From Candidatus Doudnabacteria bacterium (GTDB taxonomy: Bacteria; Patescibacteriota; Doudnabacteria; UBA920), in assembly GCA_963768175.1 (NCBI GenBank), contig CAVYGQ010000001.1, positions 254,305 to 318,304 on the forward strand: a stretch of 64,000 bases of DNA. The letters run 5' to 3'. Below, piece by piece: positions 6,381-60,218 of this stretch (its first letter is position 1; each line of letters opens with the position of its first letter). Under the pieces are notes generated by a model. The model was not told the origin of the DNA and made no database searches. It saw only the letters and a list, made by a program, of their open reading frames with translations. The position numbers were made by a program, and so were the translations under genes.

Positions 6381-6545
6381 GAAGAGAGGAATTGCACCTC
6401 TGACCTTGGGCTTACTTGCCCGCCCACCAAATTTGAGGCGTTTAGAAAGGTTTTTTTGGTAGCGGGAAGAGGAATTGCACCTCTGACCTTGGGCTTACTT
6501 GCCCGCCCACCAAATTTGAGGCGTTTAGAAAGGTTTTTTTGGTAG
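6381..6545 (-). repeat. tandem direct repeat of about 82 bp (two copies plus a third fused to a tRNA-like sequence) carrying a tRNA 3'-half-like segment
   Basis: agaggaattgcacctctgaccttgggcttacttgcccgcccaccaaatttgaggcgtttagaaaggtttttttggtagcgggaag repeated; the minus-strand reading contains AAGCCCAAGGTCAGAGGTGCAATTCCTCTTCCCGCTACCA. Confidence 0.8.
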
Positions 6546-6617
6546 CGGGAAGAGGAATTGCACCTCTGACCTTGGGCTTATGAGTTCCCACGCTCTAACT
6601 AACTGAGCTATCCCGCC
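6540..6617 (-). other. tRNA-like sequence (78 nt) with good acceptor, D and T stems but a non-canonical anticodon arm
   Basis: GGCGGGATAGCTCAGTTAGTTAGAGCGTGGGAACTCATAAGCCCAAGGTCAGAGGTGCAATTCCTCTTCCCGCTACCA; the anticodon stem does not pair canonically and the T-loop is TGCAATT. Confidence 0.4.
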
Positions 6618-38662: not shown

Positions 38663-38956
38663 ATGTTAGCTATCATAGAATCCGGCGGAAAACAATATTT
38701 GGTTAAAACCGGCGATAAAATCCAGGTAGAAAAGCTAAATGCGGAAGCCGGTAAGACCGTCACCTTTGATAAAGTTTTATTTCACGACGGCAAAGTCGGC
38801 AAACCCTACGTCTCCGGGGCGACCGTGACCGGCAAAGTCCTAAAGCAGGGCAGGGGAGACAAAGTCCACGTGCTCAAATACCGCGCCAAAAGCAAATATC
38901 GAAGGAAAATTGGGGCGAGGCAAGCTTATACCGAAATAGAGATTACCAAAGCATAA
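38663..38956 (+). CDS. rplU: 50S ribosomal protein L21
   Basis: [15 protein letters not shown]...VEKL. matches bL21. Confidence 0.9.
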
Positions 38957-38977
38957 ATATATACACCAATGAATAAA

Positions 38978-39012
38978 GGACTGCCAGGGCGACCGCCAAG
39001 GCAGTCCTTTTT
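38978..39012. terminator. bidirectional hairpin terminator between rplU and the GC-rich gene
   Basis: ggactgcc-loop-ggcagtcc + ttttt on the plus strand; T-rich on the minus strand as well. Confidence 0.65.
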
Positions 39013-39031
39013 CGTTTCCGCCAGTTCGTTC

Positions 39032-39337
39032 TTATCCCGTAACGAGGATGCAGCACGCATCGTCGAAGACGAGCGTTCTATTCTCCGGGTCGTCGCCGGC
39101 TCGCTGAAACCACCAAAGATGAGCGGCGACATCGTGGGCGGCCAGGATCTGCATCGCCTTCATGAAGTCAACAACATAGCCAATATCCAATGTCCGAGGT
39201 TTGCCACTTACTACGTCGGTCACCTGCATGTGGGGATAGGCTTCTTTGATCGGCAATTCGAGACCGACCCAGGCTTTCCTGACTTCCAACGGCGCTTCGC
39301 CACTGGGAACACTGACGATACGAATCCGTTCCTCCAT
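39032..39337 (-). CDS. hypothetical 101-aa protein, compositionally atypical (GC-rich), with its own promoter and SD
   Basis: AGGAGG 6 nt upstream of ATG; TTGCCC-17-TATAGT upstream on the minus strand; codon usage (CTG/GCG/GGC-rich) differs from neighbouring genes. Confidence 0.55.
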   Translation of the reverse strand: MEERIRIVSVPSGEAPLEVRKAWVGLELPIKEAYPHMQVTDVVSGKPRTLDIGYVVDFMKAMQILAAHDVAAHLWWFQRAGDDPENRTLVFDDACCILVTG

Positions 39338-39417
39338 TTCGGCCTCCTATCACAACTATAGTGTAATTCAAATATATGGGCAAGCCTGTTTGCATACCTA
39401 AGCTAAAGTGCTGATCA

Positions 39418-39449
39418 GAAAAACCGCCCTACTCTTAGGGCGGTTTTTT
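39418..39449 (-). terminator. intrinsic terminator downstream of recR
   Basis: aaaaaccgccc...gggcggtttttt. Confidence 0.7.
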
Positions 39450-39524
39450 ATTGATCAATTAATATTCCCTTCTACCTTCCAAAATTTAATGTACATTCAT
39501 ACAGTCGTGTATGAATGTACAAGC

Positions 39525-40139
39525 TTAATATTCACGACGACCTTCCATAGCGCGCATTAAAGTTATATCGTCGGCATACTCTAAATCTCCGCCCATGGGC
39601 AGGCCGCGGGCAATGCGGGTGATTTTTATTTTTGGGCTGGCCGCCTTGATAATTTTGGAAAGATGCATGGCCGTCGTTTCGCCTTCAAGCGACGGATTGG
39701 TTGCGATGATGATCTCGCTGACCGGCTTATCCGCTGACTTGCTTATCCGCTTGATTAATGACTCCACTTCCAAGTTCTCCGGCCCAATCCCTTCCAAAGG
39801 ATTTAGCACCCCACCCAGCACATGGAATACCCCGCTGTATTGTCCGGATTTATCTATGGCCTGCGCGTCCAGCGGCTCTTCCACCACGCAAATTAGGCTT
39901 TGGTCGCGCTTTGGGTCAGTACAAGTATTACAAGGGTCAGCTTCACCCATATTATGGCAAACGGAGCAAAAAACAATGCCTTCTTTAACTTGCGCGATGG
40001 ATTGTGAAAGGTTATTTAAATCTATACTGTCTTCTTTCAACAAATAAAAAGCCAAGCGTTGGGCGGTTTTTGGCCCAATGCCGGGAAGTTTTCCGAGTTC
40101 GTTAATCAATTTTTGGAGGGAGGAGGGGAGTTTGGTCAT
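39525..40139 (-). CDS. recR: recombination protein RecR
   Basis: HhH GIGPKTAQRLA, C4 zinc finger CSVCHN...CNTC, Toprim domain. Confidence 0.9.
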   Translation of the reverse strand: MTKLPSSLQKLINELGKLPGIGPKTAQRLAFYLLKEDSIDLNNLSQSIAQVKEGIVFCSVCHNMGEADPCNTCTDPKRDQSLICVVEEPLDAQAIDKSGQYSGVFHVLGGVLNPLEGIGPENLEVESLIKRISKSADKPVSEIIIATNPSLEGETTAMHLSKIIKAASPKIKITRIARGLPMGGDLEYADDITLMRAMEGRREY

Positions 40140-49935: not shown

Positions 49936-50385
49936 ATGGGCATCCTGCGCAAAATCACCGCCATCGCGCGGTGGATCGGCGAGCACAACAGGGAGCCGCG
50001 CTACCCCTATTCAGGAGGGATGCCAACCTCCGAGTACCTGTGGTTCCTGTCGCTCGTGGTTGGAATTCTGTGTGTAGCAGCCATCTCTAAAGCCAGCCAG
50101 TACGGCTGGTGGGTGCCAGTACTCGTCTCGGCATTCTGGAGTGCGCTGTTTGGAGCCGGCCTATCGGTATACTTGCAGAGCCGCCGGGCGACGTGGGCAA
50201 TCATCGCCACGTACTTGCTGTGCGGGGCGATGGTAACCGGAGCCTTCCAGATTTCCCCAGCATTGAGCGCGATTATGGCCGCCCCGGTCGGGCCGCTATA
50301 CGTGCTGGCGGCGTTAACGACGAACCCGCCGGTTCAGCGAACCGGCGGTTCAACAACCAGCGGCCGCCGCAACACGGCCGCATAG
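49936..50385 (+). CDS. hypothetical 4-TM membrane protein, compositionally foreign (about 60% GC)
   Basis: TAGGAGGG SD; codon usage and GC differ sharply from flanking thrS and dnaE. Confidence 0.55.
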   Translation: MGILRKITAIARWIGEHNREPRYPYSGGMPTSEYLWFLSLVVGILCVAAISKASQYGWWVPVLVSAFWSALFGAGLSVYLQSRRATWAIIATYLLCGAMVTGAFQISPALSAIMAAPVGPLYVLAALTTNPPVQRTGGSTTSGRRNTAA

Positions 50386-58806: not shown

Positions 58807-59817
58807 TTAAACCTTCATTTCAATTTCAACGTATCGCCACAAGTTGTTGTAGTCTTTATAAAATTTTGCTTTTGATCCCGGCAAGGATTTTTTTATTAAT
58901 TTCAACAATAGCAATTTTTGCCTAGGATCAAATTCCAAATAAATCCAGCACTTTTTTGCCGGACTTTCATCAACTGGCGAAGATTTTATTAAACCATCTT
59001 TTTTAATGGAAGATTTTTGGGATTTTTCAAAAAGTGCTGGATATACCAACTTTGGTTTTTGCTTTCTTTGTGCTATTTGCTCCAATAAAAGACGGATAAT
59101 CATCAGCCCCTTTTCTTTGGTAAACAACGCTCGCTTTGGCTCAAATTTTAAACCAGCCGATTCCGCCGCGCGGTTGTTTTTCCAGGCGTGCGACAAATAT
59201 GGCAGATTAGCGATGATTATATCAAAATTGTCATTGATATTTTTTAACAAATCGCTTTGGATAAATTTTACTTTGACGTGATGTTTTTTAGCGTTTTGTT
59301 TGGCGATTTTAAGCGCGACTGCGGAAATGTCAGAAGCATACCAGTGGGGAATTTGTATATTTGTACAATTTTTCCACTGGTTAAATTTTGAAGCCAGGCT
59401 AATAATAATGCACCCGCTGCCGGTGCCAATATCCAAAATCCTGATTTTGCCTGCGTCATCCTGAGGAGTCAGACGACGAAGGATCTTTTTATTCCTTTTT
59501 TGAGATTCTTCGGCTTCGGTTGCGCTCAGCCTCAGAATGACGCCGTCGACGAGGGACTCCGTCTCCGGGCGGGGGATTAGCACATGGCTATTAACTTTAA
59601 ACCTCATGCCGTAAAAATCCTTATATCCCAAAATATAAGCCACCGGCTCTCCCACCAATCTGCGCCTTATCAGTCTTGATAAAATGTTAAAATGATAAGA
59701 TGATAAAATGTATTCCGGATGCAAAAAAACAAACTCCTTGGGTTTCCGCAGAACATGCGCCAGCAGGAGTTCGATTTCTATTTTATGATATTTTTTTAAT
59801 ATTTCTTTTATTGTCAT
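58807..59817 (-). CDS. prmC: release-factor glutamine methyltransferase PrmC (HemK), carrying two in-frame repeat-element insertions
   Basis: ILDIGTGSGCI, NLPY (NPPY-type) motifs; Family-2 repeat at 59453-59553 and Family-3 element at 58937-59047 are both translated in frame. Confidence 0.8.
   Translation of the reverse strand: MTIKEILKKYHKIEIELLLAHVLRKPKEFVFLHPEYILSSYHFNILSRLIRRRLVGEPVAYILGYKDFYGMRFKVNSHVLIPRPETESLVDGVILRLSATEAEESQKRNKKILRRLTPQDDAGKIRILDIGTGSGCIIISLASKFNQWKNCTNIQIPHWYASDISAVALKIAKQNAKKHHVKVKFIQSDLLKNINDNFDIIIANLPYLSHAWKNNRAAESAGLKFEPKRALFTKEKGLMIIRLLLEQIAQRKQKPKLVYPALFEKSQKSSIKKDGLIKSSPVDESPAKKCWIYLEFDPRQKLLLLKLIKKSLPGSKAKFYKDYNNLWRYVEIEMKV
58937..59047. repeat. Family-3 inverted-repeat element within the prmC 3' coding region
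   Basis: aaataaatccagcactttttt ... caaaaagtgctggatatacc; encodes ...YPALFEKSQKSSIKKDGLIKSSPVDESPAKKCWIYLEF... Confidence 0.65.
59453..59553. repeat. Family-2 repeat inserted in frame in prmC
   Basis: gcgtcatcctgaggagtcagacgacgaaggatc...gagattcttcggcttcggttgcgctcagcctcagaatgacgcc; encodes LRLSATEAEESQKRNKKILRRLTPQDDAGK between PRPETE and ILDIGTGSG. Confidence 0.65.
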
Positions 59818-60218
59818 TCGCCTTTTTTCTCATTTCCAATGGTTTTTTTAATTAACTTATTGATATATTCCTTATCTTTTGGTAATAATTTTCCGTCTTC
59901 ATCAACCTTTAAGTTAGCTTTTAAATCTACATCAAACCCTACCAAATCACTAATCCATTTTTTTACAGCACGCATTGCTAAAGATTGTAATGAAGATGGA
60001 TCAAATTGTTTATAACTATAACCATCCCTCTGGATAGTATCTTTTAAGAACCCAAATACATACCCTCGAAGTCTTAGCAATATTGCATCTGGAAAATCAG
60101 CTACACCAATATTATATTGTTCTTTCAAATAAGAAATTGCGTATTGCAAAATAATGGGATAATCTCTTTCGAGATATTGGTGTATCTGTTCATTTTCTAG
60201 GCTTTCCATATATTTCAT
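59814..60218 (-). CDS. hypothetical protein (134 aa) between prfA and prmC
   Basis: Start and stop overlap the neighbours by 4 nt (ATGA); no family recognised. Confidence 0.45.

Follow-up and report, generated by a model that had tools for sequence, protein, structure and literature searches.

What occupies the space between rplU and recR on this contig of Candidatus Doudnabacteria, and how might it have come to be there? In the 64,000-nucleotide stretch of DNA that was analysed (referred to here as the window, with a GC content of 44.3%), an ORF of 101 amino acids lies directly after rplU. The original prediction, made from the letters alone, had described this ORF as a compositionally distinct gene with its own promoter, seemingly a recent insertion into a ribosomal-protein neighbourhood at the place of rpmA, the gene for ribosomal protein L27. 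The features identified in the region, given with their coordinates in the window and with the strand where one applies, are as follows.

38663..38956, + strand: rplU (ribosomal protein L21; PF00829, E 4.7e-35; TIGR00061, E 8e-30), the left border of the slot
38975..39010: hairpin terminator (a), with 17-nt arms that are 88% complementary (dG -29.3 kcal/mol, z -5.4)
39032..39337, - strand: the 101-aa gene, encoding a short form of an unnamed family (signature P-x-GEAP..R..WVG-L-x-LP ... A..L ... A.WW ... F)
39343..39348, - strand: Shine-Dalgarno sequence AGGAGG of the 101-aa gene, 5 nt before the ATG, read from the sequence
39355..39383, - strand: promoter-like site TTGCCC-17-TATAGT, a 9/12 match
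39419..39451: bidirectional terminator (b), AAAAACCGCCCTA...TAGGGCGGTTTTTT, with 13-nt arms that are 100% complementary, in the arrangement A-run, stem, T-run
39459..39481, - strand: relic of the recR 3' end, direct repeat D1 (83%), with the in-frame reading LEGRREY* (last 7 codons)
39490..39521: hairpin (c), TGTACATTCATACA-N4-TGTATGAATGTACA, a perfect 14-bp stem immediately past the stop codon of the live recR, found only once in the window
39525..40139, - strand: recR (TIGR00615, E 4e-73), the right border of the slot

The 101-aa ORF was found to be convergent with rplU, with hairpin terminator (a) between the two, as had been described. This terminator is common to both genes; its + strand carries a T-run, and its - strand the weaker TTTATT. 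Terminator (b), on the other side of the gene, is predicted to isolate its transcription unit from recR, and is of the same style as the single terminator of those relatives whose rplU-recR gap is otherwise empty. The region containing hairpins (b) and (c), between the promoter-like site and recR, was calculated to have a folding energy of -49 kcal/mol (z -7.6), and a search of the spacer for structured RNA or a riboswitch using Rfam gave only sub-threshold chance matches. Elsewhere in the window (6540-6617, - strand), ARAGORN reported a tRNA between tRNA-Asp and tRNA-Met whose anticodon was not determined ('ca' at position 36); Rfam supports a tRNA at 6543-6617 (53 bits).

The gene order around rplU was compared using 80 rplU loci from species-representative genomes. 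Among the loci fetched from Proteobacteria, Bacillota, Chloroflexota, other phyla and some other CPR bacteria, rplU was followed by rpmA, sometimes with Prp between them. A group of 24 related Patescibacteria loci, with L21 proteins 48-81% identical to that of the window and the closest labelled as Ca. Doudnabacteria or Patescibacteria, instead shared the order (552-aa gene)-(MraY-like gene)-rplU-> <-recR<-dnaB<-cysS without rpmA, and the same order was found in the window. The synteny comparison called for by the original prediction thus showed conserved flanks around a variable spacer. No rpmA was detected in the 64-kb window by tblastn, and the L27 of this genome was not among the best 120 L27 matches. 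In one relative (L021) an L27 gene was identified 2 kb upstream of rplU on the other strand, and the databases hold many L27 proteins from the clade of the window. The absence of rpmA after rplU, while correctly noted, is a lineage-wide arrangement seen at all 24 loci and unrelated to the 101-aa gene. Nor is the setting a ribosomal-protein neighbourhood, as rplU of the window is a lone ribosomal protein gene adjoining a gene for an MraY-like transferase. The case has little bearing on ribosome biology, the apparent break of an rplU-rpmA operon being the normal organisation in this lineage.

The expression signals attributed to the ORF were found to differ in their weight. The AGGAGG sequence is present at the distance given above, and a strong Shine-Dalgarno sequence at a plausible start was identified for only two of 54 window genes, the 101-aa gene being one of them. 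Across all window genes, the host hardly employs such sites. The sole other gene with AGGAG or GGAGG at a plausible start encodes a 134-aa protein (59814-60218, - strand); it is a low-GC outlier (30%) without a Pfam match. Strong Shine-Dalgarno sequences are also present in the CPR-like homologs P0023 and P0045 of the family described below. The TTGCCC-17-TATAGT site exists as reported, although promoter-like sites in the region numbered 5, compared with 3.4 +/- 1.8 on shuffling, and its status is that of a putative promoter of the 101-aa gene with a match count at chance level.

The GC content and codon usage of the gene had been described as clearly higher than, and different from, those of its neighbours. 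Its GC content of 0.552 does exceed the gene mean of 0.443 (z 2.0; rank 2 of 55 genes) and was attained by only 1.5% of in-frame 306-nt pieces taken from other genes. Its GC3 (0.64 vs 0.49, 1.5 sd over the mean) was attained by 4.5% of such pieces, its GC1 of 0.63 was the top value in the window, and its synonymous-codon score fell within the lowest 7%. The composition is atypical, but moderately so. Moreover, genes of the same family in all nine other low-GC, mostly CPR-like contexts were found to be GC-richer than host DNA, by 0.02 to 0.12, with the excess lying mainly at codon position 1 (0.52-0.69). The high GC1 follows from a protein rich in Gly, Ala, Val, Glu, Asp, Pro and Arg, and since the GC excess is a general trait of the family, part of the anomaly of the 101-aa gene is intrinsic to it. 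The GC excess of a short gene can stem from amino-acid composition and is, on its own, no sign of horizontal transfer. The strongest compositional outlier of the window was identified elsewhere, namely a 149-aa hydrophobic ORF at 49936-50385 (+ strand; GC 62%, GC3 76%) with no Pfam match, in a surrounding region (49.3-50.6 kb) without an Rfam family or another long ORF.

The original prediction did not recognise the protein family, and searches with the single protein of the window found no match in Pfam (E<=1), NCBIfam, PHROGs, PADLOC or the PDB. It was nevertheless found to belong to a sizeable family of its own. The family profile (alignment A3, with the window protein as the reference row) matched 1192 representative proteins at E<=1e-3, of which 221 reached E<=1e-10, in an exhaustive profile search, these representatives (about 1,200) being clusters at 50% identity. 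The window protein matched the family HMM with an E value of 2.3e-30 (hmmsearch) and was recovered in profile searches at 1.3e-48 and 6.5e-27. The family signature opens with a hydrophobic strand, and all of its invariant (P11, G13, R20, W23, V24, G25, L65 and F91) and near-invariant residues (E14, A15, P16, L28, P29, A61, A72, W75 and W76) were found in the window protein. The Shine-Dalgarno sequence and start codon agree with the N-termini of other members in the alignment. A word-indexed search returned only the window protein itself and one 132-aa relative sharing an identical 22-residue N-terminal block. Named members are all annotated as hypothetical proteins, and their sources include Patescibacteria, Ca. 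Nomurabacteria, Phyllobacterium sp. YR531 and Caulobacteraceae. No meaningful match to Pfam, NCBIfam or PADLOC models was obtained with sets of 32, 73 or 42 members, the PDB profile search with the family alignment was empty (best E 0.087), and a literature search by family motif strings found no paper. On this sequence evidence, the 101-aa ORF is a genuine gene, predicted to encode a small, acidic, soluble cytoplasmic protein of a widespread single-domain family. The family is found in Patescibacteria and Alphaproteobacteria, and probably in soil bacteria of the planctomycete type. With no Pfam, NCBIfam or PDB entry, it lends itself well to registration as a new domain of unknown function and to structural genomics.

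The structure prediction proposed for the protein was carried out with AF2, using the family alignment as input, for the window protein only. It gave a confident model (pLDDT 96.1, pTM 0.85) for which Foldseek found no significant structural neighbour, the best matches being SH3-like barrels at E >= 0.17 (TM 0.3-0.5, rmsd 6-8 A). The window protein has a pI of 5.0 and neither a signal peptide nor a TM segment. It is a short form, ending in ...FDDACCILVTG, and differs in this from many CPR-like long-form members (P0002, P0005-P0009, P0012 and P0020), which have a strongly conserved C-terminal tail, GLLEVGVGAHDHxAN, as well as from presumably planctomycete-type members with an N-terminal membrane anchor. 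With the proteins of Phyllobacterium sp. YR531, Patescibacteria (V4697_03125) and Ca. Nomurabacteria (IT397_01270), among others, it shares the same domain over the full length. In many longer homologs the domain is preceded by a signal-like N-terminus, a Pro-rich stretch and a TM helix, with basic residues between helix and domain, which puts the domain on the cytoplasmic side of the membrane. Apart from such signal or TM segments, Pro-rich linkers and unannotated N-terminal regions, no fused Pfam domain was identified among the longer members. In one member (P0018) the domain occurs as a tandem duplication.

Several known identities were considered for the protein and rejected. A Prp/YsxB protease (PF04327) was examined by comparing A3 with an alignment of Prp proteins from the fetched loci (A6, one member of which was verified as PF04327 at E 6e-25); hhalign returned a probability of 0.1%, no Pfam match was found at E<=1, and the His-Cys dyad is missing. 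The gene is also convergent with rplU, not co-directional between rplU and rpmA, and the L27 of a relative begins with MAHKKAGGS, without a propeptide. Identity with L27 itself (PF01016) was dismissed for want of a Pfam or tblastn match. Phage or mobile cargo was rejected as PHROGs gave 0 matches, no IMG/VR relative was found, no integrase or transposase neighbours were listed and no repeats bracket the gene. A component of a known anti-phage or toxin-antitoxin system was likewise rejected, with 0 PADLOC matches for the window protein and 73 members and no recurrent neighbour among 99 adjacent ORFs.

The spacer between rplU and recR was found to vary from 19 to 1535 bp among the relatives. In many of them it is a gap of roughly 20-140 bp holding one bidirectional terminator only (e.g. 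AAAACCACCCTTAGGGTGGTTTTTTT), while others carry cargo. A peptidase S51 gene with NUDIX fragments was identified in L001, and a split metallo-beta-lactamase-like ORF and an M23-like ORF, both judged from sequence, in L006 and L069, respectively. The spacers of L003, L005, L008 and L009 contain ORFs of no assigned kind; those of L008 (201 aa) and L009 (184 aa) have a short SNVLS motif in common, as seen by eye. In these reduced CPR genomes the spacer is a small gain-and-loss slot bounded by conserved core genes.

When every ORF in the 80 loci was searched with the family HMM, the sole match was a gene of 130 aa in L009 (10338-10730, - strand; E 4e-15), located directly after rplU and convergent with it. 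Its GC content (0.44) equals that of its locus. The family gene is missing from the remaining 23 of the 24 syntenic relatives. The best family match of the window protein overall, P0023 (46% identity), was found on two short contigs (L176/L177) that start with the RecR C-terminus, followed by 93 nt, a GGAGG sequence, a GTG start, P0023 and a hairpin. P0023 has the same orientation relative to recR as the 101-aa gene, and both contigs end before rplU. By its recR 3' end (84% nucleotide identity, second of 13), the host of L176 is among the close relatives. Three related genomes (those of the window, L009 and L176/L177) therefore have a family member in the slot. The proteins of the window and L009 are 26% identical and rank 216th and 96th for one another among 218 family members, whereas full-length host proteins of L009 are 70-78% identical to those of the window; with such low identity and poor mutual ranks, the two may not be simple orthologs. 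The rplU-ORF-recR arrangement, which the original prediction held against an insertion if conserved across the lineage with matching composition, does recur but is not so conserved. Of the predicted insertion, it remains that the gene is non-universal, has its own signals and is lacking from most syntenic relatives, but its slot-mates in L009 and L176/L177 do not agree with a one-off recent foreign insertion.

A trace of past recombination was identified on the recR side of the slot. The relic of the recR 3' end (23 nt) lies 66 bp downstream of the live recR end (39525-39547), and the only differences between the two in the matching part are synonymous ones at the Arg codons, which read AGA AGG for the relic and CGT CGT for the live copy. 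At the second Arg position, AGR-type codons were found in 13 of 13 relatives and in L176, and ten of them have such codons at both positions, as in the relic. This codon use identifies the relic as the lineage-typical recR end, and the live CGT CGT as atypical for the lineage. The live recR end with hairpin (c) looks like a later insertion of 66 bp that regenerated the RecR C-terminus. Alternatively, the relic may mark the edge of an imported segment comprising the recR end and the 101-aa gene. Under either reading the slot has recombined more than once.

Outside the slot, members of the family were found in varied contexts and, like the window gene, as stand-alone small genes with their own signals. 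Their neighbours included tatA/tatC and mscL; dnaE together with rnhB; smpB, at some 3 kb from obg; pyruvate:ferredoxin oxidoreductase; an AsnC regulator together with a cupin; a gene for two CSD (cold-shock) domains; a two-component system; and an aminotransferase. In L087 (4625-5420) and L088 (5-779), the gene of the long-form member P0008 (139 aa) comes immediately after rpmA and is read in the same direction. These two loci represent a CPR-like genome with a GC content of 43%, and the pairing may be due to chance, with only about eight unbiased CPR contexts available. A further 80 metagenome loci of the family had a median GC content of 62%, and none had L21, L27, RecR or Obg nearby. All-vs-all clustering of neighbours grouped only re-sampled genomes, and in a Pfam scan of 99 non-redundant adjacent ORFs no family occurred more than twice, with no integrase or transposase among the 25 Pfam families listed. 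The family thus has no conserved partner gene and no mobile-element gene in the contexts surveyed. No relative was found on IMG/VR viral contigs by pattern search and tblastn. No convincing att-like, direct or inverted repeats bracket the 101-aa gene, the sole repeat being the recR-end relic, which does not bracket it.

The reading preferred here, to which a probability of about 60% was given, is that the 101-aa gene is a sporadic but recurrent, very fast-diverging accessory occupant of the rplU-recR slot in this lineage. In this lineage rplU and recR are convergent neighbours, rpmA is encoded elsewhere, and the spacer is a gain-and-loss slot flanked by conserved core genes. The family gene may be ancestral, with losses in most relatives, or it may have moved from one relative to another through homologous recombination in the rplU and recR flanks. 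Here it would form a transcription unit of its own, insulated by terminators on both sides. The reading is strained in that only three genomes have the gene, while equally close relatives (L001-L006, L021) do not, so that many losses or repeated transfers are needed.

Other explanations were weighed against this reading. The short length of the ORF and the presence of a longer antisense ORF of 130 aa (38969..39361, + strand) could suggest that it is spurious and that the region is a non-coding spacer or codes on the opposite strand. This is refuted by homology and can be given practically no credence, in view of the highly significant family membership of the minus-strand product, with all invariant residues, a confident fold and a fitting Shine-Dalgarno sequence and start. 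A recent horizontal arrival from outside the lineage, as a cassette of promoter, Shine-Dalgarno sequence, gene and terminator from a GC-richer donor that uses Shine-Dalgarno sites, was judged unlikely. It would account for the raised GC content, reached by so few pieces of the same length, for the low codon score, for the perfect AGGAGG in a host with so few strong sites, and for the gene being missing in 23 of 24 syntenic relatives. Most metagenome loci of the family are, in addition, high in GC, and the recR relic beside the cassette attests to past recombination of the region. The GC3 of the gene together with a strong Shine-Dalgarno sequence, both unusual for this host, indeed leaves room for a fairly recent arrival. 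On the other hand, a close relative has the best match overall in this very slot and L009 has a further member there, the GC excess is general to the family and derives from GC1, that is, from amino-acid composition, strong Shine-Dalgarno sequences also occur in the CPR-like P0023 and P0045, and searches for mobile-element genes, for a pair of flanking repeats and for homologs on viral contigs were negative.

Two further explanations concern the role of the gene. It might be conflict-related, namely an orphan immunity protein, an anti-phage factor or a factor in symbiont-host interaction, under diversifying selection and hotspot turnover. A small, acidic, stand-alone protein of patchy distribution in a variable islet between core genes would suit this, as would slot-mates only 46% and 26% identical, compared with the far better conserved full-length host proteins of L009. 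The lack of a PADLOC or PHROG match for the window protein or 73 members, of a toxin-like or other recurrent partner among the 99 adjacent ORFs, of viral contigs with the family and of any match to a Pfam immunity family makes it decidedly improbable. Still less probable is a ribosome-related factor tied to L21 or L27, such as a Prp/YsxB substitute or an assembly factor. The gene does lie beside rplU in the window and in L009, the member in L176/L177 is at the recR end of the same slot, P0008 directly follows rpmA, and the size is similar to that of Prp, which is located after rplU in Firmicutes. However, being convergent with rplU it is not co-transcribed with it; the window protein has no PF04327 match, the profile-profile probability against the verified Prp alignment is 0.1%, and the family has no invariant Cys or His; and the L27 of a relative has no propeptide to be cleaved by such an enzyme. 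The cases linked to rplU came from searches anchored on rplU and thus reflect ascertainment bias, other contexts are unrelated, and 0 of 80 metagenome loci had L21, L27 or RecR nearby.

For the accessory occupant of the slot favoured here, the conservation pattern, charge and architecture tentatively suggest a binding or adaptor module for a protein or small ligand on the cytoplasmic side. Binding would make use of the conserved GEAP loop, Arg20, Trp23 and Trp75-Trp76, and in other phyla an N-terminal anchor would keep the same domain close to the inner face of the membrane. Neither a structural neighbour (best Foldseek E 0.17, TM 0.43-0.52) nor a genomic association points to a specific activity. 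More speculatively, and with rather long odds, the family could represent a new fold whose CPR members are rapidly diversifying conflict or host-interaction factors swapped at core-flanked slots; in a variant of this idea, recurrence beside rplU and rpmA would link the domain to the biology of L21 and L27.

With respect to known systems, Prp/YsxB is encoded by a gene of ~110 aa after rplU in Firmicutes and relatives, which the window gene resembles in size and place while being opposite in orientation. The model of the window protein is similar to SH3-like small beta-barrels (the C-terminal domain of nitrile hydratase beta, PetP and R67 DHFR) in being a small beta-rich domain, but it contains an inserted two-helix hairpin and has no sequence relationship to them, and the matches are not significant. 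Variable islets are gain-and-loss hotspots between conserved core genes of bacterial genomes. The slot of the window is comparable to these in its conserved flanks, its differing or absent cargo, its small insulated units and its traces of recombination, whereas it differs from them in being tiny (0-1.5 kb), in containing no integrase, tRNA or recognisable defence genes, and in its location between convergent genes at a shared terminator.
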